Both the position numbers and the translations under genes were made by a program. Shown one piece after another: positions 6,982-57,650 of a stretch of DNA of 64,000 nt. Within the stretch, counting starts at the first letter, position 1. Each line of letters starts with the position of its first letter. The stretch comes from Patescibacteria group bacterium (GTDB taxonomy: Bacteria > Patescibacteriota > Minisyncoccia > Phycocordibacterales > UBA9973). Location: contig JAGWUB010000002.1 in assembly GCA_028868715.1 (NCBI GenBank), forward strand, positions 8,430-72,429. Direction: 5' to 3'. Below the pieces are notes generated by a model. The model ran no database searches. It was not told where the DNA came from and saw only the letters and a list, made by a program, of their open reading frames with translations.

Positions 6982-7851
6982 ATGTTTGAAAATTGGAAAA
7001 TATTTGAAGGTACTTACGTCAACCCCATCGTCCTAAAAGACAGAATGACAACGATAGAGGAGGTAAGACAAAGCTCCAAGGACAAAAATAAGGAAGTGAA
7101 TGAAGCTATTTTGGAGCGTTTGAAAATTATTGAAGTAAAATATTTATCAAAAGACAAAAAAGTTTATTTAGGGCAGATAGTCATCGATAAAGATTTGGCT
7201 GACAATATCTTGAAATTGTTTGATTATATTGAAAAAATGAATAACAACACTGATACAGCAGATGATAAGAAATTTTTTATAGAAAAAATAATACCGATAT
7301 CAAATGAAAAATATAAAGACAACGATGCTCTGTCTATGGAAGACAACAATACCTCTGCATTTAATTACAGATTAATAGAAGGAAAAAACAGATTATCTTC
7401 ACACGCCTTTGGTTTTTCTATAGATATAAACCCCAAGGATAATCCGGTTATGATTAATGGAGTAGTAAGTCAACCAAGAAATGGCAAGTATGATGAAAAA
7501 AATTCAAATACCTTAACCCCGCATCATAAGGTGGTAGAATTTTTAAAACAACGAGGATTTGAATGGGGTGGAGACTGGAAGTCTTCAAAAGATTACCATC
7601 ATTTTCAAAAGATCCTTCCCACCAAAGAGTACCTAAAGAATTATATTGATAACGCAATTGATAACACAGAAGAAAATATTTTAGATACACTTGGAAAGTT
7701 ATTTATCAATAGTTACAAATTGGAACATTTTCAGGCACTACTCAATTTTGTTAAAAATGATGTTATTATCAGCAAAATTGGCAAAGAACAATACTTGAAA
7801 TTTTTTAATCTTTTAAACGAGCAAATACATAATGCACAAATACGATCATAA
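6982..7851 (+). CDS. Hypothetical protein with a C-terminal LAS-type (peptidase M15 / VanY-like) metallopeptidase signature
   Basis: SSHAFGFSIDINP (H…D zinc-ligand motif) and GFEWGGDWKSSKDYHHFQ (WGG-W…D-HF motif of M15 D-Ala-D-Ala / L-Ala-D-Glu peptidases). The call rests on motifs only. Confidence 0.4.
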   Translation: MFENWKIFEGTYVNPIVLKDRMTTIEEVRQSSKDKNKEVNEAILERLKIIEVKYLSKDKKVYLGQIVIDKDLADNILKLFDYIEKMNNNTDTADDKKFFIEKIIPISNEKYKDNDALSMEDNNTSAFNYRLIEGKNRLSSHAFGFSIDINPKDNPVMINGVVSQPRNGKYDEKNSNTLTPHHKVVEFLKQRGFEWGGDWKSSKDYHHFQKILPTKEYLKNYIDNAIDNTEENILDTLGKLFINSYKLEHFQALLNFVKNDVIISKIGKEQYLKFFNLLNEQIHNAQIRS

Positions 7852-10663
7852 GAAAATTGAAAAAAAATGGCAAAATATTTGGGAGAAAAAGGGAGTTTAT
7901 CATGCCGATGATAAATCTAAGAAACCCAAGTATTATACTTTAATTGAATTCCCATATCCTTCCGGTGATGGCCTTCATGTAGGACACCCTAGGCCGTACA
8001 TAGGTATGGATGTTATTTCTAGAAAAAGACGAATGCAAGGGTACAACGTACTTTACCCGATAGGTTGGGACGCCTTTGGATTGCCGACAGAAAACTATGC
8101 CATAAAGACTGGTAAGGATCCCAGAGTGGTTACCAAGAAAAATACTGACACTTTTAGAAAACAAATAAAGTCTTTAGGGGTTTCCTTTGATTGGTCACGA
8201 GAAATTAATACCACTGACCCAAAATATTATAAATGGACCCAATGGATATTTTTACAATTTTATAAAAAGGGCTTAGCTTATAAGGCTAAGATGACCATTA
8301 ATTGGTGCCCAAAGGATAAAATAGGTTTAGCCAACGAAGAAGTGATAAATGGGTGTTGCGAGAGGTGTGGCACACCAGTTGAAAAGCGAGAGAAAGAACA
8401 GTGGATGCTGGGCATTACTAAATATGCTGAGAGATTGGATAAAGATTTAGATACCGTTGATTATTTACCACAAATAAAAATAGGGCAGAGGAATTGGATA
8501 GGGAAGTCTGTGGGCGCAGAGATAGAATTTAAAATATCTTCAACCAACGAAAGTATAAAAGTATTCACCACTCGACCAGACACTATTTTCGGCGCTACAT
8601 TTATTGCGTTAGCTCCTGAGGTGGCAAAGAAAATAACAGGTAAAGATTTTGGCATAAAAGTAGATACCGATCGAGAGAATAAAGAAAAAATTGGTATAGA
8701 TACTGGGTTGAAGGCTAAAAATCCTGCGAGCGGTGAACAAATACCCGTATTCGTAGTCAATTATGTATCCGCAGATTATGGCACAGGAGCTATAATGGGA
8801 GTACCGGCGCACGATGAAAGAGATTTTGAATTTGCGAAAAAATATAATTTACCAATTATAGATGTGGTAATACCCATTAGAGTTGATAATACCAATCCTC
8901 ATATTTCTGGTAAAAAAATTGTTGAAAGAAAAGCTGTTCAAGCAATAATTAGAAATCCAAAAAATGGAAAAATTCTTTGTTTAAATTGGAAGGCTCATCC
9001 ATGGACTACGTTTGTGGTTGGTGGAGTGGAAAAAGGAGAAGATATTCTAGAAGCCGCAAGACGAGAAGTGTTAGAAGAAACAGGTTATAAAAATATAAAA
9101 TTTATAAGAGTATTAGGTGGCCAAGTAAGAAGTGAGTTTTTTGCAGCACATAAAGACGAAAATAGAGTTGCATATTTTAATGCTATTTTATTTGAACTAG
9201 AGAACGAAGATAGGATCGAAGTTTCAAGAGAAGAAATTGAAAAACATGAAGTTGTATGGAAGGACCCAAAAGATATTCGTTCTGATACTATGCAATGTGG
9301 AGAGCTAGATATTTGGCTTGAAAGACTAAAAAATGAAAACGCTGTTAATGCAGAGAATGGTATTCTAACTAACTCTGGAAAATTTAATGGCATGGACAGT
9401 GAAAATGCTAAGAAGGAAATCATTAAATTTGTTGGTGTAGAGGAAAAAACAACCTTCAAGCTTCGGGATTGGATATTCTCTAGACAGAGGTACTGGGGTG
9501 AACCAATACCTATTATTCATTGTAGTAAATGTGGTATGGTTCCAGTTCCTGAAAAAGATTTGCCCGTAGAGCTTCCTAAGGTAAAAAATTATCAGCCGAC
9601 GGATAGTGGCGAATCACCACTGGCCAATATTTCTAAATGGGTCAATGTAAAATGTCCAAAGTGTAAAGGGGGAGCATTGAGGGAGACAGATACTATGCCA
9701 AACTGGGCAGGCTCAAGCTGGTATTACCTTAGATATACAGACCCTAAAAATAAAAATGCATTTGCTGACAAGAAAAATTTGAAATACTGGACACCAGTAG
9801 ATTGGTACAACGGTGGCAACGAACACACCACGCTTCATCTTTTATATTCTCGTTTTTGGCACAAATTTCTGTATGATTTAAAGCTCGTACCAACTTCCGA
9901 GCCGTACATGAAGCGTACTTCTCATGGCATGATTCTCGGTGAAGGGGGAGTAAAGATGTCTAAATCAGTCGGCAACGTCATCAACCCAAACGAAATCGTA
10001 AAAATATATGGAGCCGATACAATGCGAGTTTACGAAATGTTTATGGGGCCGTTCGATCAGTCTGTGGCTTGGAGTGACGAAGCGATCATAGGTCCACGAA
10101 GATTTTTAGAAAAAGTTTGGAAGTTGGGGGAGCTGGTAGAGAAAAATTCAGTCCGTGTCGGAGCCCGCTTGCGGGTAAAGCGGCGTGATTTTTCTCTACC
10201 AGATTCCACTATAGCTAAACTCTTAAACAAGACAATAAAAAAAGTTTCTGAAGATATAGAAGCTATGCATTTCAATACCGCCATTTCTGCAATGATGATA
10301 CTTGCTACAGAAATGCAAAAATCAGAATCTGTTTCAGAAAAAGATTTCAAAATGTTTTTACAAATTTTAGCCCCATTCGCACCACACATTACCGAAGATC
10401 TCTGGCAGACACTCGGAGAGAAAAAATCTATCGATCTTTCCGTTTGGCCCAAGTGGGATGAAAATTTAATTCAAGACGAAGAGGTGACCATAATAGTTCA
10501 AGTAAATGGCAAAGTACGCGGACAATTTAAAGCTTCTGTAGACATAAGTGAGGCTGAAGCTAAAAGCAAAGCAGAGAATTTACCAGAAGTTAGGAAATGG
10601 ATAACCACAGGTGTCAAGAGGTTTGTGTTTATCCCCAGAAAACTTATTAACATTGTAGTTTAG
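7832..10663 (+). CDS. leuS: Leucyl-tRNA synthetase carrying an inserted NUDIX hydrolase domain (~aa 365-485)
   Basis: HIGH (DGLHVGHPRPY) and KMSKS (VKMSKSVGNV) motifs, the TTRPDTIFGATF and GTGAIMGVPAHDERD editing-domain motifs, and RDWIFSRQRYWGEPIP. Between LPIIDVV and FKLRDW lies a ~145-aa extra segment containing a perfect Nudix box, GGVEKGEDILEAARREVLEETGY. Confidence 0.9.
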   Translation: MHKYDHKKIEKKWQNIWEKKGVYHADDKSKKPKYYTLIEFPYPSGDGLHVGHPRPYIGMDVISRKRRMQGYNVLYPIGWDAFGLPTENYAIKTGKDPRVVTKKNTDTFRKQIKSLGVSFDWSREINTTDPKYYKWTQWIFLQFYKKGLAYKAKMTINWCPKDKIGLANEEVINGCCERCGTPVEKREKEQWMLGITKYAERLDKDLDTVDYLPQIKIGQRNWIGKSVGAEIEFKISSTNESIKVFTTRPDTIFGATFIALAPEVAKKITGKDFGIKVDTDRENKEKIGIDTGLKAKNPASGEQIPVFVVNYVSADYGTGAIMGVPAHDERDFEFAKKYNLPIIDVVIPIRVDNTNPHISGKKIVERKAVQAIIRNPKNGKILCLNWKAHPWTTFVVGGVEKGEDILEAARREVLEETGYKNIKFIRVLGGQVRSEFFAAHKDENRVAYFNAILFELENEDRIEVSREEIEKHEVVWKDPKDIRSDTMQCGELDIWLERLKNENAVNAENGILTNSGKFNGMDSENAKKEIIKFVGVEEKTTFKLRDWIFSRQRYWGEPIPIIHCSKCGMVPVPEKDLPVELPKVKNYQPTDSGESPLANISKWVNVKCPKCKGGALRETDTMPNWAGSSWYYLRYTDPKNKNAFADKKNLKYWTPVDWYNGGNEHTTLHLLYSRFWHKFLYDLKLVPTSEPYMKRTSHGMILGEGGVKMSKSVGNVINPNEIVKIYGADTMRVYEMFMGPFDQSVAWSDEAIIGPRRFLEKVWKLGELVEKNSVRVGARLRVKRRDFSLPDSTIAKLLNKTIKKVSEDIEAMHFNTAISAMMILATEMQKSESVSEKDFKMFLQILAPFAPHITEDLWQTLGEKKSIDLSVWPKWDENLIQDEEVTIIVQVNGKVRGQFKASVDISEAEAKSKAENLPEVRKWITTGVKRFVFIPRKLINIVV

Positions 10664-24456: not shown

Positions 24457-25146
24457 TTAACTCATCCTTCTTACTTTTTCAAAAAGTAACATTACGACGA
24501 CAGTGACGACCCACAAGAAAGCAAACACTTTCAGAAAATCGCTTCCGCCATTTCTTATTATAAAAAAATTAAAGATACTATGCAAGGAGATGGCAAAGAA
24601 TAAGCCTACTGCAACATGCCAATATTTTCTCAATCCTTTGTAATGAAATGCAATTCCCAAAGCAATACCAAGAATTCCACTCGAAACGGTGTGTAAAAGA
24701 GTAGAACCCAAGAATCTAAGTTCTCCGGTGAGCAGACTTACGGTAGTCGCACCTATGCTCAAAGAAAGTGGTTTAATTAAAAACAGTGCATTTTCAAGGG
24801 CTGCAAAGCCCAAGGCTGCAGTGATAAGATAAATAGGCCACTCTACTGGTTCATCGATATCATTTGTTCCATAAACCACTACCAATACAGCTATATATTT
24901 TAATATTTCTTCCGCGCTAGCCCAACCAATCAGTCGCCAAGTATTACTACTGACATAAGTTTGGATAAATTTTTCAATTGGCAAAACACAAATGACCGCA
25001 GTCATGCCCAAAATAAAAACTATAGTCAGTAATCCCTTTGGCTGAACTCTTTTTTCTTCTTCTTTAACCCAAAACCACAACCACAAAAGAGAGGGGAGAA
25101 TTCCACCAAAGAATGCTAAAGCTAAAATTTTTGGATCGTTAAACAT
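24457..25146 (-). CDS. PrsW-family intramembrane metalloprotease (anti-sigma-factor protease-like)
   Basis: Polytopic membrane protein with the PrsW motifs: EExxK (ASAEEILKY), FAALEN, the TLLHTVSSG His motif, and HSIFN. Confidence 0.55.
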   Translation of the reverse strand: MFNDPKILALAFFGGILPSLLWLWFWVKEEEKRVQPKGLLTIVFILGMTAVICVLPIEKFIQTYVSSNTWRLIGWASAEEILKYIAVLVVVYGTNDIDEPVEWPIYLITAALGFAALENALFLIKPLSLSIGATTVSLLTGELRFLGSTLLHTVSSGILGIALGIAFHYKGLRKYWHVAVGLFFAISLHSIFNFFIIRNGGSDFLKVFAFLWVVTVVVMLLFEKVRRMS

Positions 25147-27283
25147 TTGATTTATCGTGTGCTCCTTTGAGGGGCCATTTTTCTACCATTAAAAAATTCT
25201 TATGGTCTGGTAAAATAGACCAAATTTCTTCAGTCACAAAAGGCATAAATGGATGCAATAATTTTATGGAGTTTTCCAATATATAATAAAGTGTCTCTCC
25301 ATAGCCGTCCTTACCCTTGGATTCTTCGATAATCTCGTCTGCGAATCGGTGCCATATATAAGCATACAACTTTTCTGCTGCTAAATAGAATCGGAAATTG
25401 TCCATATCAAATGTTATATCTTTAGCCATTGTATTCCATTCATCTACCAACTCTTTTTTTAAGCCACCTTCTCTTTTGATCGAGAGAACATAGCGAGTAA
25501 TGTTCCAAATTTTATTAGCAAAATTTTTGTATGCTTTTACTTTTCCTAAATCAAACTTTCCATCTGCGCCAGGTCCAATACCTACAATCATAGACATCCG
25601 TAAGGCATCAGCACCGTATTCATTTATGATTTCAATTGGGTCTATGCCATTACCTTGCGACTTACTAAATTTCTGTCCCTTGGCATCGCGGAGCATCCCA
25701 TGCAAGTAGACGGTTTCAAATGGAATTTCGCCTATTAAATATTGTGACATCAAAATCATTCTAGCAACCCAGAAAAAAAGAATTTCATAGCCGGGGTTTA
25801 TTACACTAGTTGGATGGAAGTTCTTTAAATCTTTAGCACTTATATCTGGCCAGCCAAGAGTAGAAAAAGTCCAAAGTCCAGAAGAAAACCATGTGTCCAA
25901 GGTGTCTTCATCTTGAGTCCAGCCTTCGCCATTAGGAGCTTCGATTCCACAGTAGGTCTCATTTTCTTTATACCAGACTGGAATTCTGTGGCCGTACCAA
26001 ATTTGTCGGCTGATACACCAATCGCGTAAGTTTTCTATCCAATTAAAGTAAACCTTTTCAAAATGGTCAGGGAGTATTTTTATATCCTTATTTCTCACAG
26101 GTTCCAGCATCAATTCTTTTAGTGATTTATTGTCACGGTCAGGAATTTTTTTATTTACATCCACAAACCACTGGAGCATTATTTGTGGTTCGATTATTCC
26201 ACCTGAGCGTTCGGCGGTAGCTACACGATTTATATAATTTTCATCTATGGAAACGAGTAATCCTTTGGCTTTTAATTTTTCAACTATTTTTTCTCGGGCG
26301 TCCAGAATCTTCATCCCAGCAAATTCTTGGGCAACTGGTAAGAGTTTTCCGTATTTATCTATAATTTGTTCTTTGTCTAGTTTGTATTTTTCCGCTAAAG
26401 CGAAGTCTTCGTGTGAGTGCCAAGGAGTGATGGTCATTACCCCTGTGCCAAATTCCATATCAATCATATCATCCTTGATTACAGTGGCTTCTATTGGCCC
26501 ATTTATCCATTCTAGTTGGATCTTTTGTCCATGAGTATACTTTGCATAGCGTTTATCGTCCGGATGCATTACCACATATTTATCACCAAATTTTGTTTCT
26601 GGTCTTGCCGTGGCTATCTCAAAAGGTCCGTATTTAAAGGTATAAAATTTATTTTTCTGTTCCACATAAACTATCTCATCATCCGAGATGACTGTTTGCC
26701 CCTTAGGATCCCAATTCACGATACGATGCCCCCTATAAATTAATCCATCATCATACATTTTTTTAAACGTAGTTCTTACGGCGAGATTTCGCGCTTTGTC
26801 CAAAGTGAAAGCTTCGCGGGACCAATCTAAGGAGGCGCCGATTTTTCGTAGTTGGGTAACTATAGTTTTCCTACTATCAGCGACAAATTCATCTACGCGT
26901 TCTAAAAATTTTTCTCGGCCGATGTCTCTTTTTTTTAAACCCTCCTTCTCAAGAATTTTGGAAACTTTTGAATCAGTGGCTATAGCAGCGTGATCCGTGC
27001 CAGGGAGCCAGAGAGTTCTTTTGCCCAGCATGCGGTTGTAGCGAATCATGGTGTCTTGCATAGAATCCTCCAACACGTGTCCGAGGTGTAGTACGCCGGT
27101 GGCATTTGGGGGAGGCAGAACAATGGAAAAATAAGGTGCATCAGCTTTAGCTATACCTTTTTCTACACATATATCGGGATTAAAAAAACCACTATCTTCC
27201 CATAGTTTGTAAATCCGATCTTCAGTATTTTTCGGATCATAAGGCCTCAGCAGTCTCTCGTCCACCCCGTTAGAGATTTCCAT
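25139..27283 (-). CDS. valS: Valyl-tRNA synthetase (short form, 714 aa)
   Basis: PPPNATGVLHLGHV (HIGH), GTDHAAIATD, the TARPETKFGD and GTGVMTITPWHSHED editing-domain motifs, and KFSKSQGNG (KMSKS). The C-terminal coiled-coil extension is short or absent. Confidence 0.85.
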   Translation of the reverse strand: MEISNGVDERLLRPYDPKNTEDRIYKLWEDSGFFNPDICVEKGIAKADAPYFSIVLPPPNATGVLHLGHVLEDSMQDTMIRYNRMLGKRTLWLPGTDHAAIATDSKVSKILEKEGLKKRDIGREKFLERVDEFVADSRKTIVTQLRKIGASLDWSREAFTLDKARNLAVRTTFKKMYDDGLIYRGHRIVNWDPKGQTVISDDEIVYVEQKNKFYTFKYGPFEIATARPETKFGDKYVVMHPDDKRYAKYTHGQKIQLEWINGPIEATVIKDDMIDMEFGTGVMTITPWHSHEDFALAEKYKLDKEQIIDKYGKLLPVAQEFAGMKILDAREKIVEKLKAKGLLVSIDENYINRVATAERSGGIIEPQIMLQWFVDVNKKIPDRDNKSLKELMLEPVRNKDIKILPDHFEKVYFNWIENLRDWCISRQIWYGHRIPVWYKENETYCGIEAPNGEGWTQDEDTLDTWFSSGLWTFSTLGWPDISAKDLKNFHPTSVINPGYEILFFWVARMILMSQYLIGEIPFETVYLHGMLRDAKGQKFSKSQGNGIDPIEIINEYGADALRMSMIVGIGPGADGKFDLGKVKAYKNFANKIWNITRYVLSIKREGGLKKELVDEWNTMAKDITFDMDNFRFYLAAEKLYAYIWHRFADEIIEESKGKDGYGETLYYILENSIKLLHPFMPFVTEEIWSILPDHKNFLMVEKWPLKGAHDKSNV

Positions 27284-27350
27284 AATATATTAAAATGATT
27301 TAACCAATATAATAAGACTTGAATCTCGTTATCTCTAACGGGGTCCATCC

Positions 27351-28538
27351 CTAAATAATATCACATTTAAGCTTTAGATTACCAGTTGCTTTGATAGTAT
27401 CCATTTTAGGTACTTTCTTTTTGTTTTTAATATAATTTAAATACCCAGCAATGCCGATCATCAGTGAATTATCTCCCGTGAGTTCTTTTTGTGGCAGAAG
27501 TAGCTTAATTTTATATTGCTTGGCAAGCTTTTTCATCTCTCTTTGTAGGTGTATGTTGCAAGCCACCCCGCCACCGACGATGATAGTTTTGATTTTATAT
27601 TTCTCAATTGCCTTGGCTGTTTTGTAGATTATTGGTTCAATAGCCGCGTTTTCAAATTCTAGAGCAATTTGCATTTTTGTTTCCTCACTAATCTTGGGTA
27701 ATCCACCAAGGTCTCTAATCAAATAAAGCACCGCGGTTTTCAATCCAGAATAAGAAAATTTAAAATCTTTAGATTTCAGCATTGGGCGGGGAAGAGCGAA
27801 AGAAAAACCAATCTTTTCAGGGTCGCTGTCTCCGCGTGCTCGCGGAGCGCTCCCTCTCGGCTCGACAGCCTGCGAGAGACCCTTCGAAGATTGTTTTTCT
27901 TTTGCTCTTAATTCTTCCGCAAGTTTTGAAATCTGAGGACCGCCTGGGTAGTCCAAGCCTAGCATGCGGGCGACTTTGTCGTAGGCTTCACCGATAGCAT
28001 CGTCTAAGGTTTCACCAATTATTTCATACTGCATCCATTTTTTACTGACGATCAACTGTGTATGTCCACCAGAGACTAAAAGCGAAAGCATAGGTGTTTT
28101 CACTTTTTCAACTTTGAATTTTCCCTTATTAGTTTTTACATTTTTCTTTCCGAACACCGAAAGTATATGCCCCTCCATGTGATTGGTGGGTATCAAAGGC
28201 ACATTCCATTTTTTTGCCAAATCTTTAGCAAATGTAATTCCTTCCCACAGACACATTTCCAAACCGGGGCCGTAAGTCACCGCTACTGCATCTACAGGAG
28301 TCTTTTTTTTACCAAGCTTAGACTCTATCATCACTTGCTCAAATAAAATTGGCAAATTTTTAGCATGTTCTCGCTTGGCGAGGGCAGGGTATACTCCGCC
28401 ATATGGGATATGTTTTGGTATTTGCGAATTGGAAGCATCTGCCAAAATCTTAAAAGAAGCATTTTGAGTGCCTCCACCCACTTCCATTATGGTTATCCCC
28501 GTATCATCGCAAGATGTTTCTATACTTAATATTTTCAT
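27351..28538 (-). CDS. tsaD: tRNA N6-adenosine threonylcarbamoyltransferase TsaD (Kae1/YgjD) with a ~30-aa GC-rich in-frame insertion
   Basis: MKILSIETSCDDTGI, HMEGH, and FALPRPM…FSYSGLKTAV. The extra segment …KEKQSSKGLSQAVEPRGSAPRARGDSDPEK… is encoded by a GC-rich double-hairpin stretch at ~27795-27885. Confidence 0.85.
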   Translation of the reverse strand: MKILSIETSCDDTGITIMEVGGGTQNASFKILADASNSQIPKHIPYGGVYPALAKREHAKNLPILFEQVMIESKLGKKKTPVDAVAVTYGPGLEMCLWEGITFAKDLAKKWNVPLIPTNHMEGHILSVFGKKNVKTNKGKFKVEKVKTPMLSLLVSGGHTQLIVSKKWMQYEIIGETLDDAIGEAYDKVARMLGLDYPGGPQISKLAEELRAKEKQSSKGLSQAVEPRGSAPRARGDSDPEKIGFSFALPRPMLKSKDFKFSYSGLKTAVLYLIRDLGGLPKISEETKMQIALEFENAAIEPIIYKTAKAIEKYKIKTIIVGGGVACNIHLQREMKKLAKQYKIKLLLPQKELTGDNSLMIGIAGYLNYIKNKKKVPKMDTIKATGNLKLKCDII

Positions 28539-28623
28539 AAATTGTAGGATGATTATATCCTATTTGTGAGATTTTTTCTAATGAGTTATACTATCGTATT
28601 ATTAGGTATAATAAATACATTTT

Positions 28624-29109
28624 ATGAATACAAAAGAATTTTTTATTAAAACATTGAAAGATGAACAGAAGAAATTTAGAGACGTAATCGAGGCTTTGCC
28701 CGAGGATCAGTTTTCTCACAAGGTTCACGACAGAGCTCGCGAGGCAGGGAATCTAGCAGCTCAGCTTACAGCTCAATGGGAAGCAATTTCTGGAATACTA
28801 ATCAGTGGGGTTCCAGCTTTTAACGCTCATGCAATGAAAGCTAAAACTAGAGCAGAAATGCTTTCAGTTTTTGATACAGGATATAGCTATCTCTTGAAGA
28901 ATGTAGAAAATATTTCTATTGAAGATTGGGAAAATGGCAACGGCGTCCTAGATATGGGCCCAAATGGTAAATGGGAAGACAAAAAATATAATATGTCTTG
29001 GGGTTTTCTTTTTGATGCAATTCATCACCGAGGACAACTCTCTACATACCTTCGTGCGATGGGAGCAAAAGTTCCTTCAATCTACGGCCCTAGCGCAGAT
29101 ACTCAATAA
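28624..29109 (+). CDS. DinB_2/YfiT-like (DinB superfamily) metal-dependent protein
   Basis: Four-helix-bundle family signature IHHRGQLSTYLR near the C-terminus. 161 aa. Confidence 0.6.
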   Translation: MNTKEFFIKTLKDEQKKFRDVIEALPEDQFSHKVHDRAREAGNLAAQLTAQWEAISGILISGVPAFNAHAMKAKTRAEMLSVFDTGYSYLLKNVENISIEDWENGNGVLDMGPNGKWEDKKYNMSWGFLFDAIHHRGQLSTYLRAMGAKVPSIYGPSADTQ

Positions 29110-29121
29110 CTAAATTAATTG

Positions 29122-29193
29122 TGCGCGGTGAGGGGATTGAACCCCCGGCCTACTCTACGTCAAAGAGTCGCTCTACCACTGAGCTAACCGCGC
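29122..29193 (-). tRNA. tRNA-Val (anticodon GAC)
   Basis: The reverse complement GCGCGGT-TA-GCTC-AGTGGTA-GAGC-G-ACTCT-TTGACGT-AGAGT-AGGCC-GGGGG-TTCAATC-CCCTC-ACCGCGC-A. Confidence 0.85.
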
Positions 29194-29285
29194 ATGTAGT
29201 GATACTACATTTTTTTGGCAATCCTTTCAAGCCTCAAAATAAAGCCCCCATACGCAACCATTAGCAAGCTCTATAAAAATTAAAT

Positions 29286-30035
29286 TTATGGTGCAAATTT
29301 TTCTAATAGCTTGAGCTCGTCTTTAGTGTTTGGTTGCAGGCCTTCAATCAGGTGAGACACTGGTACTGCTTCTACCTTTTTATTTTGATTACAGGCCAAT
29401 TTGATAAGGTCAGTCAGGTAGTATTCTCCTTGCGCATTTTCATTCTTAAGTTTATCAATATTTTCCCACAGCCAGTCCGCATCAAAGGCATACATTGCCG
29501 GATTTAATTCTTTGATTAATTTTTCTTTTTCTGTGGCATCTTTGAATTCAATTATATCTACAACTTGTTTATCTGGTCCTCGTATTATTCTACCGAAGTG
29601 TCTTAGCCCAGATCTCCACTCTTCAAAATCTGGCACAAGTACTGTAGCTATGGTTATTGTTGGTTTTTTCTCTAGGTGTTTAGAAATTATACGCTCCATG
29701 GTTTCTTTGGAAATAGTTGGTTGATCAGTGGAGATAACCAATATTGTTTTATGAGCTTTGTGTACTGAACTCTTGGCTGACTTTACAGCGTGTCCAGTAC
29801 CGAGCTGTAGAGCTTGTTCAACGTAAATATGATCGCTGCCAAGCACTTCCTTTATTCTTTCTTTTTTATGACCAACGACAATTACGGGTTTAATAGTTAA
29901 ATTTAAACTTGAAACTGCATCCAGGACGTGTTGCAAAAATGGACGCCCCCTAAACATAGCAAGCGCCTTTGGGTCATCAGAATTCATGCGCTTACTTTTT
30001 CCTCCAGCTAAAATTATAATTTGAACATTTTTCAT
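29286..30035 (-). CDS. Sugar-1-phosphate nucleotidyltransferase (GlmU N-terminal uridylyltransferase-like domain only)
   Basis: IILAGGKSKRM…ALQLGTGHAV matches the GlmU/NTP_transferase signatures. There is no LbH acetyltransferase domain. Confidence 0.6.
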   Translation of the reverse strand: MKNVQIIILAGGKSKRMNSDDPKALAMFRGRPFLQHVLDAVSSLNLTIKPVIVVGHKKERIKEVLGSDHIYVEQALQLGTGHAVKSAKSSVHKAHKTILVISTDQPTISKETMERIISKHLEKKPTITIATVLVPDFEEWRSGLRHFGRIIRGPDKQVVDIIEFKDATEKEKLIKELNPAMYAFDADWLWENIDKLKNENAQGEYYLTDLIKLACNQNKKVEAVPVSHLIEGLQPNTKDELKLLEKFAP

Positions 30036-56426: not shown

Positions 56427-57650
56427 CTAGAAAGCATTAGTGCCGAGGGGGCTACCCAAGCCAGTCGGACCGTCATACCCTGCCACAGCGGTACAGAGTA
56501 AATTTCCGCAAGATCCATTGCTTCCAGAGATGATGTCATGCAAATTATTTAAAACATTTGCATAAGGGAAACCATTGTTGATTGTGCTAGTGTTGCCAGC
56601 CAAAGCATAAGTCGCAGCGATGATCGGTGAAGCTAGGCTCGTGCCACCCACTTTAAACCAACCAGACCTTCCCTGATAGCGGACACTATCATAAACTGCA
56701 GCTCCAGAATTTGGATCAGCGTCGGCCGAAACATCAGCGACTGCGCGATTGCTACAGATAGATGGATTTAGAAAATTCTGGAAACTTGGTTGAGTTTCAT
56801 ATGCCGAGCAACCACTTCCCGCTCCGCTCCAAGCAGTTTCACCTACATAATTGTTTCCATTCAAAGTCAAAGTCGTACCACCCACTGCAGTGACATATTT
56901 GGAAGCTGCCGGATACTCTACTCCATAACCACTGTCTCCAGAACTAAAAGTTATTGCGATTCCGGGCTTGTTGAAATGGCCGTCATAAGTAGTTGTCGTT
57001 TCACTAGAAAACTCTCCCCCACCCCAAGAATTTGATATGACATTTGCACCCATCGTTTGAGCCCTATCTTCTGCAGCGATTAAATTAGCAAAACTATTTG
57101 AGTCTGCTTCCACTAAAAGTATACTGCAGTTTTGGCAAAGAGCGTGAGCTGTCTCTACATCTAATGCAATTTCCAAAGACCAGCCGGCATTTGTAGATGG
57201 ATAACTTGTATCCCCTCTCTGGCTGACTTTTTGGAAGCATGGAGTCGCACTTGAAACTGCGCAATTGTTCATTGATGGTAAACCAAACTTTGAGCTGTAA
57301 GTATTTAAGTCAGATAAAATATTTGGATCGTTATAAGCATCTACGATTGCGATGATTTGTTTAGTGTTTGCGGTGCCACTCAAATTGTATGCACCACGGA
57401 GTTGCGCAGGGCCAAAACCCGCAGGTAGAGATGTAGCCTTTGGTTGACCATTTGCATCTACTACCACTCGTGAATGGCATCTAGCGCTTACGCCACTCTC
57501 ACCAGGGCTACATACTGGAATATGGTTGACTGCCACAGCAGACATATGATTTTGGGCTGCCTCTGGAAGCGAATTTAATCCACCGGCCATTGCTGGACTG
57601 GTTAATAATATTAAAGATAATACAAGAATAGAAATAAATTTTTTTATCAT
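56427..57650 (-). CDS. Secreted serine-carboxyl peptidase (S53 sedolisin-like; S8/S53 superfamily), apparently without a long pro-domain
   Basis: Signal peptide. IAIVDAYNDPN…DLNTYSSKFGLP, SLEIALDVE, SNSWGG, SSGDSG and the catalytic-serine motif GGTSLASPIIAATYALAG. Confidence 0.6.
   Translation of the reverse strand: MIKKFISILVLSLILLTSPAMAGGLNSLPEAAQNHMSAVAVNHIPVCSPGESGVSARCHSRVVVDANGQPKATSLPAGFGPAQLRGAYNLSGTANTKQIIAIVDAYNDPNILSDLNTYSSKFGLPSMNNCAVSSATPCFQKVSQRGDTSYPSTNAGWSLEIALDVETAHALCQNCSILLVEADSNSFANLIAAEDRAQTMGANVISNSWGGGEFSSETTTTYDGHFNKPGIAITFSSGDSGYGVEYPAASKYVTAVGGTTLTLNGNNYVGETAWSGAGSGCSAYETQPSFQNFLNPSICSNRAVADVSADADPNSGAAVYDSVRYQGRSGWFKVGGTSLASPIIAATYALAGNTSTINNGFPYANVLNNLHDIISGSNGSCGNLLCTAVAGYDGPTGLGSPLGTNAF

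Follow-up and report, generated by a model that had tools for sequence, protein, structure and literature searches.

The tsaD gene described here carries a short GC-rich palindromic segment in a reading frame that, as the ORF listing showed, is unbroken across it. This raises the question of whether the segment belongs to the protein, to an RNA, or to a DNA repeat that landed in the gene. The gene (27351-28538, minus strand; 395 aa) lies in a stretch of 64,000 nucleotides (64 kb), which we call the window. It was identified by a Pfam TsaD match (E = 2.8e-73), and the best database match of its product was an identical NCBI MAG protein, MDE2399747.1. GC content reached 0.72 at 27807-27895, compared with 0.377 overall; no other 60-bp GC peak in the 64 kb was as sharp. 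The ORF, the Pfam match and the GC scan thus agreed with a preliminary description of a minus-strand tsaD interrupted by a GC-rich stretch.

That description had reported two hairpins within about 90 bp. Both were found as described, CTCCGCG-tgct-CGCGGAG at 27830-27847 and CTCTCG...CGAGAG at 27854-27878, and the palindromic stretch proved real; its extent, however, is about 118 nt, not about 90 bp, once an outer stem is counted. Inverted repeats, folds and a covariance model placed the full element at 27792-27909 (minus strand), as a three-way junction of stems P1, P2 and P3. The element top strand was defined as the tsaD coding strand. The covariance model scored the window copy at 133 bits (E = 1.5e-29), the sole strong match in the window. 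The outer inverted repeat is imperfect, 29-35 nt long, and pairs 27792-27827 with 27875-27909, enclosing both hairpins. This outer stem, the three-way junction and the change of orientation between orthologous sites (below) lay beyond the view of the preliminary description.

On the top strand, the P1 5ʹ arm, AAGAGCAAAAGAAAAACAATCTTCGAAGGG (27875-27909, minus strand), encodes ...RAKEKQSSKG, and the P1 3ʹ arm, CCCTGAAAAGATTGGTTTTTCTTTCGCTCTT (27792-27827, minus strand), encodes ...PEKIGFSFAL; both were delimited by inverted repeats. The P2 hairpin (27853-27880, minus strand), delimited by inverted repeats and covariation, consists of a GTCTC/GAGAG base, a CGCAG junction, a 4-bp inner stem, which is GGCT/AGCC in the window copy, and a 4-nt loop that reads GTCG in this copy and GACG in the majority of copies. 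The P3 hairpin (27823-27851, minus strand), again from inverted repeats, has a GCGCU/AGACAGC base, two bulged A and the 7-bp stem CTCCGCG/CGCGGAG; its loop AGCA (tgct on the plus strand, 27837-27840) is invariant. The family core of about 70 nt can be written as GGGGTGTCTCGCAG-P2-GACG-P2ʹ-GAGAGGCAGCGCT-P3-AGCA-P3ʹ-AGACAGCGACCCC. It is clamped by the P1 outer stem of 20-35 bp, whose sequence differs by subfamily and locus.

As a single sequence, the window copy folded only modestly better than its shuffles (z = -1.9 as RNA and -2.1 as DNA). We judged the structure to be real because of the comparative data, not because of this fold. Compensatory changes on both sides were found in 27 of 45 base pairs, compared with 12.2 expected, and 94.5% of the cells were paired, compared with 85.5% in shuffles; none of 500 shuffles reached the observed values. 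The covariation score was 0.30, versus 0.06-0.10 for slid structures. In P1, both sides had changed in 18 of 26 pairs among 21 aligned family-1 copies from the tsaD site. The P2 inner stem covaried as GGCC/GGCC, GGCT/AGCC, AGCC/GGCT and GCGC/GCGC. In P3, 42 distinct stems occurred in 111 genomic copies, with 760 of 777 cells Watson-Crick (97.8%), and 99% of the P3 cells were paired in alignment A1.

The break in the alignment to solved TsaD structures placed 36 extra codons at 27801-27908 (minus strand), corresponding to TsaD residues about 211-246. E. coli TsaD (4wq5/4ydu) has 4 residues at this site, between ...AAQ and RFVFPRPM, which upheld the view that the window protein has an extra loop where other TsaD proteins have a short linker. 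The stretch encodes the peptide KEKQSSKGLSQAVEPRGSAPRARGDSDPEK that had been read from it. The pLDDT of AlphaFold2 was about 31 (below 50) at residues 219-244 and above 90 in the TsaD core. The insert is therefore predicted to be a translated, disordered excursion on an otherwise confident fold, in agreement with the earlier proposal of a tolerated surface loop.

The tsaD site and dispersal among Patescibacteria

Among 120 TsaD relatives, an insert was present at this site in about 90%, and 12 had none. The insert peptides corresponded to the window frame in 66 relatives, to the +1 frame in one and to reverse-complement frames in eight. The peptide classes are thus translations of one DNA in three frames and both orientations. 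DNA comparison confirmed this: the window insert, when reverse-complemented, matched the insert of one relative (L001) with 87.5% identity across 104 nt. Identity of the element between tsaD loci was 72-90%, compared with 61-77% for flanking tsaD DNA and 35-58% for third codon positions; conservation lies in the nucleic acid, not in the protein. Instead of protein-level, non-palindromic conservation in all relatives, which the preliminary description had named as the outcome that would speak for an ordinary loop, the same DNA was found in several frames and both orientations.

In all 77 tsaD loci with both anchors, the insert was a multiple of three, stop-free and in frame, which ruled out an intron, an intein or a translational bypass. 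An intein was further countered by the length of the insert, only 36 aa, and by the Pfam domains of the window TsaD, which were TsaD and HypF_C_2 alone.

The identity of the element did not follow that of TsaD (Spearman 0.15, p = 0.08). TsaD pairs at 95% identity carried unrelated inserts, an 87%-identical pair carried inserts in opposite orientations, and two loci (L004 and L052) had tandem double inserts in opposite orientations. P1 was site-specific at tsaD regardless of core type or orientation. In the closest insert-free relative (L205), the left P1 arm was ordinary coding sequence, and the core and right arm were absent.

A pattern scan found the element in at least 119 genomic stretches, all from Patescibacteria, with up to 5 copies per genome (counted on contigs with exact-pattern matches). 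TsaD accounted for only about 6 of 121 pattern matches; other hosts among these matches were UvrD (12), Tgt (10), Def (5) and RecG (4), and in-frame residence was also found in UvrB, the CCA-adding enzyme, Fmt, LeuRS and DnaE. Some copies lay upstream of dnaA; others were intergenic, for the most part directly downstream of a stop codon. Two genomes had covariance-model matches immediately behind the stop codon of ftsZ. With dispersed copies in frame in many unrelated genes, the earlier suggestion of a REP/MITE-like palindromic element that had landed in frame was supported.

The search for further copies, which had been recommended with that suggestion, succeeded in these Patescibacteria genomes and found no other family-1 copy within the 64-kb window. 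The hairpin sequences did not recur in the window with 3 mismatches allowed (chance expectation 0.01 and 0.00), and neither blastn-short (7-nt word) nor the unfiltered covariance model detected a second window copy, apart from a weak match in leuS described below. No copy was present in 21 kb of a close syntenic relative. With a single family-1 copy in 64 kb and none in the 21 kb of the relative, copy number per genome is therefore low. When the insert peptide was searched against a representative protein library, 2 matches were obtained at E up to 0.001, the 32-aa query being underpowered against 1.8 billion proteins. Rfam 15 gave nothing relevant around the window copy at E up to 10, over the whole window at gathering score, or, with E up to 1, at five loci that carry intergenic copies. 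No earlier description of such elements in CPR/Patescibacteria was found in the searchable literature, which is itself incomplete.

Mobility, orientation and strand polarity

Two loci on different contigs of one genome, SURF_53 (L192 and L197), shared a unit of about 175 nt in unrelated flanks, with arms 100% and 94% identical and a core 93% identical. Three further genomes had this unit as well, and there is another group of this kind; the loci L112 and L150 behaved like L192 and L197. A near-identical pair placed at unrelated positions within one genome indicates transposition. The P1 arms differ in most copies, as would be expected of long-standing residents more than of a recent burst, and activity in the window genome is unproven.

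Termini were subfamily-specific. In one five-member subfamily, TA stood beside the left end of all 5 copies and beside the right end of 4. TA flanks and the termini GAGCATGTTTGAAA were limited to a single subfamily, and GCGAG-like motifs stood on both sides of GC-rich copies. A heuristic for symmetric termini of the form RGRGC...GCYCY recovered common ends in only 8 of 111 copies and overlooked the subfamily of L192 and L197. Neither a terminal inverted-repeat sequence nor a target-site duplication that holds for the family as a whole was found, and no recombinase gene was noticed in the inspected gene lists beside tsaD copies.

Both orientations were observed at orthologous sites in four host genes: UvrD (5:5), Tgt (7:2), Def (4:1) and TsaD (4:2). 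When the window core was flipped in silico about the P1 axis, tsaD acquired 0 stops, and the product, KEKPIFSGSLSPRARGALPLGSTACERPFEDCFSFA, was identical to the natural inverted allele. Frame use in host ORFs was bimodal (27 sense, 22 antisense) and was confined to the two flip-related frames. These comparisons point to inversion in place; they were made between species, and the pattern would look no different if insertion had recurred at the same specific sites.

Arms and core differed in their conservation. Median pairwise identity was 0.375 for the arms versus 0.78 for the core, and the arms were near-identical within one copy and divergent between lineages. Core GC stayed at 66-69% in hosts of 29-58% GC, and the GC of the P1 arms followed that of the host (Spearman 0.76). 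Constraint acts on the core and not on the arms.

The comparison of filled and empty sites with L205, together with the locus-specific arms, led us to consider whether P1 is made from the host flank at each insertion. This idea was weakened by the whole units, arms included, at unrelated loci.

The two strands of the element were not equivalent. On the top strand, P1 mismatches comprised 96 G.T versus 22 A.C (p = 3e-12), and the bias had the same direction in sense (16:7), antisense (17:4) and intergenic (63:11) copies. In an independent set from the tsaD site the asymmetry was weak (36:21, p = 0.06), and P3 had none (3 G.T versus 7 A.C). In host ORFs of at least 200 aa, 33 copies were sense and 22 antisense; at gene 3ʹ ends, the top strand was antisense to the gene in 23 cases and sense in 12. 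Folding of the host mRNA was rejected as the source of the G.T polarity, because the bias does not reverse in antisense copies; it is further countered by the intergenic copies, which are more often antisense to the adjoining gene.

Candidate explanations of the element

Our main reading, to which we give a probability of about three in four, is that the stretch in tsaD is a copy of a family of non-autonomous palindromic DNA repeats that are mobile or recently mobile and specific to Patescibacteria (Paceibacteria-type CPR). Copies would insert in either orientation, between or within genes. We infer a selective filter, under which an intragenic copy would survive only if its length is a multiple of three, its frame is stop-free and it falls in a permissive surface loop (about 35-40 residues). 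The window tsaD copy would be such a survivor, forming a disordered loop between the helix that ends in ...KLAEELRAKEK and the conserved LPRPM motif and having presumably no role in TsaD chemistry. Recombination between the P1 arms, or template switching from one to the other, could turn the core around where it sits, and a resident core may be replaced or converted by other copies. Inversion and replacement together would account for the scatter of orientation, frame and core type over the TsaD tree alongside a site-specific P1. Through arm-to-arm conversion, the stems would remain complementary. The core sequence and its helices would be conserved since propagation or maintenance needs the folded shape, probably of one specific single strand.

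A more specific version, which we consider possible though rather doubtful, is a structure-specific, strand-polar mobile element. Here the core, and not a pair of terminal repeats, would be the recognized unit, spread as a single strand by a possibly CPR-specific enzyme, and would flip-flop in place; it would acquire or maintain an outer stem adapted to the locus. If this version is true, an in-frame cassette in essential genes would swap two alternative surface loops.

Alternatively, the element might be a multi-copy structured RNA, cis-regulatory or small, whose three-way junction was selected as RNA and whose tsaD copy is embedded in the coding region. The strong covariation and the conserved loops GACG and AGCA and junctions are also expected of a functional RNA, as would be a core of about 67% GC whatever the host composition, G.T (G.U) mismatches favoured on one P1 strand and intergenic copies at gene 3ʹ ends, where RNA hairpins act. 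Sense and antisense placement relative to host genes were, however, about equally common (33:22), flipped copies occurred at orthologous sites, and at gene 3ʹ ends the top strand was antisense more often than sense (23 versus 12), with a polarity bias independent of host transcription. The strict Watson-Crick pairing of P3 (97.8%), with nearly no G.U, would be odd for an RNA helix, no Rfam family matched the window or the intergenic copies, and near-identical paralogues with unrelated flanks resemble transposition. We regard this explanation as unlikely.

It is also improbable that these are ancient, immobile palindromes, each fixed by one ancestral insertion at tsaD, uvrD, tgt and other sites and passed on by vertical descent with arm-to-arm gene conversion, templated hairpin correction and occasional in-place inversion. 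The site-specific P1 at tsaD, the insert in about 90% of 120 relatives, the equilibration of P1 arm GC to the host, the unique arms of most copies and the few copies in the window agree with such fixed residents. They do not account for two whole units of 93-100% identity in one genome with unrelated flanks, for cores that are more alike across distant genomes and different genes than the host genes are, for unrelated inserts in 95%-identical TsaD, or for the tandem double inserts in opposite orientations of L004 and L052.

A lineage-specific TsaD loop of the ordinary kind, functional at the protein level and GC-rich by chance, is effectively refuted. Its fixed position, its presence in most relatives and the common peptide class GVSQADGPRGSAPRARGDSDPEKI would suit it, but at this very site the same DNA is also read in further frames and from the opposite strand, 12 of 120 relatives lack it, near-identical TsaD proteins have unrelated inserts, the peptide-coding element recurs in UvrD, Tgt, Def, RecG, UvrB and other proteins, and the segment is predicted to be disordered. 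The functional loop contacting, for instance, TsaB/TsaE, which the preliminary description had offered as its alternative, was not supported, since the peptide is not conserved and UvrD, Tgt, Def and RecG also carry the element.

If the segment is a mobile repeat, as in our main reading, many differences in length and 'lineage-specific loops' of conserved CPR enzymes (TsaD, UvrD, Tgt, Def, RecG, LeuRS and others) may be repeat insertions, not adaptations. The insert peptides will cause false homology among unrelated CPR proteins, and the element could be used as a phylogenetic or strain marker for unculturable organisms.

Likeness to known repeats and a second insert in leuS

The design of the element recalls the Rickettsia palindromic elements (RPEs; Ogata et al. 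2000). According to the summary in PMC10969869, these are palindromic sequences of about 100-150 bp with stable predicted hairpins, comprising several families, which are dispersed in a reduced genome and often stand in frame in unrelated housekeeping genes, where the peptide is tolerated. The Patescibacteria element is similar in being a dispersed multi-copy palindrome (118 nt in the window, about 175 nt in the SURF_53 subfamily), in its in-frame insertion into unrelated genes with the host ORF and fold kept, and in that a dedicated transposase is known for neither. It differs in its Patescibacteria host, in its GC-rich three-way-junction core with a variable outer stem, in its occurrence in both orientations and several frames at one orthologous site, where a flip is ORF-compatible, and in its apparently lower copy number. 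The two are likened by design alone, and a sequence relationship is not expected. We treat the element as an analogue of RPEs, not as a member. The mechanism of spread has been an open question since 2000, for which the Patescibacteria family may serve as an independent system; its sharp core, abundant covariation, measurable polarity and flipping make the question testable by comparative genomics in thousands of public CPR genomes.

Correia/CREE, Nezha and ERIC are examples of bacterial MITEs. Like MITEs, the Patescibacteria element is short, non-autonomous, bounded by inverted repeats and multi-copy, contains no ORF of its own and can form in-frame fusions. It also has near-identical paralogues at unrelated loci (L192/L197 and L112/L150), and in one subfamily the terminal inverted repeats are clear and TA stands at either side, a feature of MITEs derived from IS630/Tc1-mariner. 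However, the core is conserved and the P1 repeats are not, which is the reverse of a typical MITE, and no parent IS with matching ends was found for it.

GC-rich hairpin repeats are shared with REPs and REPINs. REPs are single hairpins of 20-40 bp with a GTAG or CGTC tetranucleotide tag at one end, and those of the CGTC type have no known transposase (PMC3733652). Strand-specific recognition of a single strand, as by HUH/RAYT, would fit the polarity of the element. In contrast to REPs, the element is branched, 110-175 nt long and without a GTAG tag. Membership among CGTC-type REPs or REPINs was rejected, as GACG (CGTC on the other strand) is the P2 loop, not a terminal tag.

Invertons are likewise segments bounded by inverted repeats and occur in both orientations at one locus, as the element does in four host genes. 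The identity of arms within a copy, which arm-to-arm conversion predicts, recalls invertons and plastid inverted repeats. The element differs from invertons in that its arms are just 20-35 bp, its inversion was seen between species only, and it shows no sign of a regulatory switch, each state encoding another disordered loop.

The longest inverted repeat in the window marked a second in-frame palindromic insert, at 10111-10224 (plus strand), inside the LeuRS ORF of leuS (7832-10663). A perfect 15-bp outer stem, CTGGTAGAGAAAAAT/ATTTTTCTCTACCAG, surrounds two small GC-rich hairpins, and the DNA fold had z = -4.35. The covariance-model match was weak (18 bits, E = 0.05), and this insert is probably a distant or decayed relative, not a confirmed member of the family. 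At another locus (L188), LeuRS carries a true family-1 element in the same slot.

Architecture and covariation of the tsaD element

The gene tsaD (27351-28538, minus strand) is an ORF of 395 aa (Pfam TsaD, E = 2.8e-73). The GC content in it peaks at 0.72 at 27807-27895 against 0.377 overall, which is the sharpest 60-bp peak in the whole window. Two GC-rich hairpins had been reported here in the preliminary description, and both were found where it had placed them: one with a 7-bp stem and a 4-nt loop at 27830-27847, and the second at 27854-27878. The stretch was real, but the element was bigger than described, because an imperfect inverted repeat (27792-27827 with 27875-27909) surrounds both hairpins as an outer pair of arms. 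Therefore, the RNA and DNA folds are a three-way junction of ~118 nt, made of an outer stem (P1) and two enclosed hairpins (P2 and P3). The evidence for this fold from the window sequence alone was modest: as a single sequence, both as RNA and as DNA, it folded about 2 standard deviations better than shuffles.

From an alignment of 21 copies in a common orientation, we derived a 45-base-pair consensus. Double-sided changes were observed in 27 of the 45 pairs (12.2 expected), 94.5% of cells were paired compared with 85.5% in column shuffles, and the covariation score was 0.30 compared with 0.14. None of 500 shuffles matched the observed pairing, double changes or covariation score, and sliding the partner by 1-3 columns gave a covariation score of only 0.06-0.10. 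The covariance model made from this alignment picked up many previously unassigned tsaD inserts, on either strand. In the alignment of its matches, P1 was the long outer stem; P2 had a GTCTC/GAGAG base, a CGCAG junction, an inner stem of 4-5 bp and a GACG loop; and P3 had a GCGCT/AGACAGC base with two bulged A, a GC-rich or AT-rich 7-bp stem and an AGCA loop, with GCGACCC downstream. The loops and the junction-proximal helices were conserved, and the other stems covaried. No Rfam family matched the element in the window copy, the whole window or the loci with intergenic copies.

The insert in TsaD is kept as DNA

The 120 closest TsaD proteins (356-427 aa) all came from Patescibacteria (Nomurabacteria-like and related), and ~90% of them had an insert at the same position. 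The insert peptides formed distinct classes that were translations of one DNA: the reading frame of the window (GVSQADGPRGSAPRARGDSDPEKI) in 66 of the 120, the +1 frame (GVSRRRTGREAALREHAETATLKNLF) in 1, and reverse-complement frames (GSLSPRARGALPLSPSACETPRKDCF and one other) in 8. Another 33 were variants outside these frame matches, and 12 had little or no insert. Among compared loci of other Patescibacteria genomes, the insert of L001 matched the window insert in reverse complement (87.5% identity over 104 nt), L003 had a 48-nt core in common with the window copy (96% identity) in a different frame, and L004 carried a tandem pair of elements in opposite orientations. Across the 21 family members, identity to the window copy was 72-90% in the element, 61-77% in the flanking tsaD DNA and 35-58% at the third codon positions of these flanks. 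We concluded from these sequence comparisons that the insert is conserved at the DNA level, not at the protein level.

In the alignment to solved TsaD structures, residues ~211-246 of the window protein were extra, and the alignment broke exactly at the flagged stretch; E. coli TsaD has 4 residues at this point, between ...AAQ and RFVFPRPM. The AlphaFold2 model built from 44 homologues gave a confident TsaD fold (mean pLDDT 86, core >90) and a pLDDT of ~31 for residues 219-244, so that the insert is predicted to be a disordered excursion leaving the end of helix 199-218. In all 77 metagenomic tsaD loci in which both flanking anchors were findable, the insert was stop-free and a multiple of three. 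This result indicated that it is translated, and splicing or bypass was ruled out. The tsaD copy is a tolerated, translated resident of a long-occupied permissive site, and nothing indicated that it contributes to the function of TsaD. The order of NTP-transferase, tsaD, valS, PrsW-like protease and HSP20 genes was kept in the window (25139-30035) and in L001, L003, L004 and L205.

Dispersal and turnover of copies

A search pattern was constructed from the conserved GC-rich core of ~70 nt (P2 and P3), which matched all 21 known members, and one genome per species was scanned. Neither hairpin sequence occurred a second time in the 64-kb window, and the scan found at least 119 stretches, with all listed records being Patescibacteria MAGs (named Nomura-, Kaiser- or Liptonbacteria, Paceibacterota, Minisyncoccia and, in many cases, by the automated label 'Saccharibacteria'). 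Several genomes had matches on 3-5 separate contigs. TsaD made up one six-member cluster only among the 121 matches listed, and the remaining ones were inside other long ORFs or had short or absent ORFs. Hosts confirmed with Pfam were UvrD helicase, TGT, peptide deformylase, RecG, UvrB, CCA-adding enzyme and Fmt; two further hosts, LeuRS and a DnaE-like polymerase, were identified by eye. Two copies of the same family as the window element (family 1) were present in the UvrD-like helicase of L159 (~aa 91 and ~aa 480), in Tgt of L123 (one sense and one antisense) and within a single host protein of L114. These dispersed copies, together with the translated and predicted disordered insert, supported the initial reading of an in-frame, REP/MITE-like palindromic element tolerated in TsaD.

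Intergenic copies were close to the 3' ends of genes, in many cases 0-30 nt beyond the stop codon, and one copy was directly upstream of dnaA. In two genomes (L029 5398-5519 and L084 1985-2106), an AT-rich variant was found at the orthologous position directly behind the stop codon of ftsZ; it scored 57 and 50 bits, belonged to the same structural superfamily, and differed between the two genomes by compensatory changes. In host ORFs of >=200 aa, frame use was bimodal, with 27 sense copies in the GVSQADGPRGSA frame, 22 antisense copies in the GSLSP..GALPL..CETP frame and a few in other frames. On average 4.6 of the six frames were open per core, compared with 3.8 in shuffled cores.

In the single genome of Parcubacteria SURF_53, the loci L192 and L197 (contigs QZIY01000017 and QZIY01000014) shared a whole unit of ~175 nt (arms 100% and 94%, core 93% identity) between unrelated flanks. 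The unit starts with GAGCATGTTTGAAA after TA and ends with TTTCAAACATGCTC before TA, and these termini were also found in three further genomes. A second whole-unit group, L112 and L150 of one genome plus L165 and L203, behaved in the same way. Such whole-unit paralogues with unrelated flanks are the signature of whole-unit transposition. Across the family copies, neither a terminus common to all nor a general target-site duplication was found. The P1 arms differed in most copies (median pairwise identity 0.375 versus 0.78 for the core) and were complementary within each copy (median 24 bp at 92%). Arm GC followed host GC (Spearman 0.76), and core GC was constant at 66-69% across hosts of 29-58% GC. 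At tsaD, P1 was site-specific (AAAGAAAAACAATCTTTGCGGGG...) regardless of core type or orientation. In GC-rich genomes (such as L098, L102, L105, L106, L113, L119, L125 and L128), the variable arms were bordered by an extra conserved outer motif, with AGCGAG(Y)G to their left and C(C)GAGCGC to their right. It is a GCGAG-like direct repeat that may mark a preferred target, result from a duplication or belong to the element itself.

The insert state was scattered across the TsaD tree, and element identity did not track TsaD identity (Spearman 0.15, p = 0.08). The 95% identical TsaD of L011 and L051 had inserts unrelated to each other, with sharp limits of DNA identity at ...KLAE and LPRPM. The slot of L051 (5510-5584) held a 75-nt insert formed around a perfect 15-bp hairpin of unrelated sequence, CCTACACCTGGTGTC...GACACCAGGTGTAGG; evidently, the slot takes more than one kind of palindrome. 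One TsaD pair of 87% identity had inserts in opposite orientations. In L205 (GCA_964423445.1), the closest insert-free relative, which is syntenic with the window at ~76% nucleotide identity, the left P1 arm was present as normal coding sequence, and the core and right arm were absent. Other tsaD-insert classes were also found outside the slot (L054 6200-6267, L083 9934-9981, L043 14630-14661 and 21053-21099, L068 1330-1400, L001 4202-4242), some directly upstream of tsaD, one elsewhere within tsaD and one near the valS 3' end, so several related repeat families appear to coexist.

Orientation, polarity and relation to known repeats

Both orientations were found at orthologous sites (UvrD 5:5, Tgt 7:2, Def 4:1, TsaD 4:2). 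When the window core was inverted in silico around the axis of its own P1, tsaD remained without a stop codon and the product, KEKPIFSGSLSPRARGALPLGSTACERPFEDCFSFA, was essentially that of the natural inverted alleles L001 and L055; inversion about an inner axis, one base off, gave the other naturally occurring antisense frame. Therefore, in-place inversion at the P1 arms suffices for the alternative alleles. Both orientations may also arise from repeated site-specific insertion. With in-place inversion, the core would flip between the P1 arms, and arm-to-arm conversion during this step would leave the arms complementary yet divergent between lineages.

Mismatches in the outer arms of P1, read on the element top strand (the tsaD coding strand in the window copy), were 96 G.T versus 22 A.C (p = 3e-12). 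The bias had the same sign in sense copies (16:7), antisense copies (17:4) and copies outside long ORFs (63:11), and of the copies at 3' ends of genes, 23 had the top strand antisense to the gene and 12 had it sense. Since the bias kept its sign in antisense copies and the top strand was more often antisense at 3' ends, host transcripts were ruled out as the source of polarity. The bias points to one particular strand being folded or exposed single-stranded, which could be ssDNA, as for HUH transposases, or an element-specific RNA. P3 had no polarity bias and hardly any wobble (3 G.T and 7 A.C in 777 cells), and the replicate in the tsaD-site set was weak (36:21, p = 0.06).

Rickettsia palindromic elements (RPEs) are described as ~150-bp palindromic repeats; there are ten families of them, R. 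conorii has 44 copies, and nearly half lie in frame in unrelated genes with the fold kept (PMC10969869). Our family is functionally RPE-like. It resembles MITEs as a short non-coding unit with inverted arms and paralogous copies, but lacks the family-wide conserved terminal repeats that define them. With REPs it shares GC-rich hairpins, location 3' of genes and intragenic copies in genes for replication and repair, and, with the CGTC class, no known transposase; however, REPs are tagged hairpins of 20-40 bp, unlike this element, in which GACG/CGTC is a loop (PMC3733652). Our literature search found no account of such elements in CPR bacteria. We concluded that the family works like an RPE or MITE and is outside every described family, with RPEs compared by description.

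Three other features were observed in the window. A GC-rich island (56439-56500, with a GC content of 0.65 across 60 bp) comes after an AT-rich spacer, with no Rfam family there at gathering score. A perfect inverted repeat of 14 bp lies at the tsaD-valS junction (27264-27277 and 27331-27344, ACCCCGTTAGAGAT / ATCTCTAACGGGGT; DNA fold z = -3.68). Its arms are 53 nt apart, one in the first valS codons and the other directly upstream, and the repeat could make the start region of valS inaccessible in the mRNA; the Rfam T-box was not matched. The leuS gene (ORF 7832-10663) contains another in-frame palindromic insert (10111-10224, plus strand), which encodes ...ELVEKNSVRVGARLRVKRRDFSLPDS..., has two small GC-rich hairpins inside a perfect 15-bp outer stem (DNA fold z = -4.35) and occupies the LeuRS slot that holds a true family-1 element in L188. 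Its covariance-model score was only 18 bits, so it is either a divergent or decayed relative of family 1 or a member of a different family.
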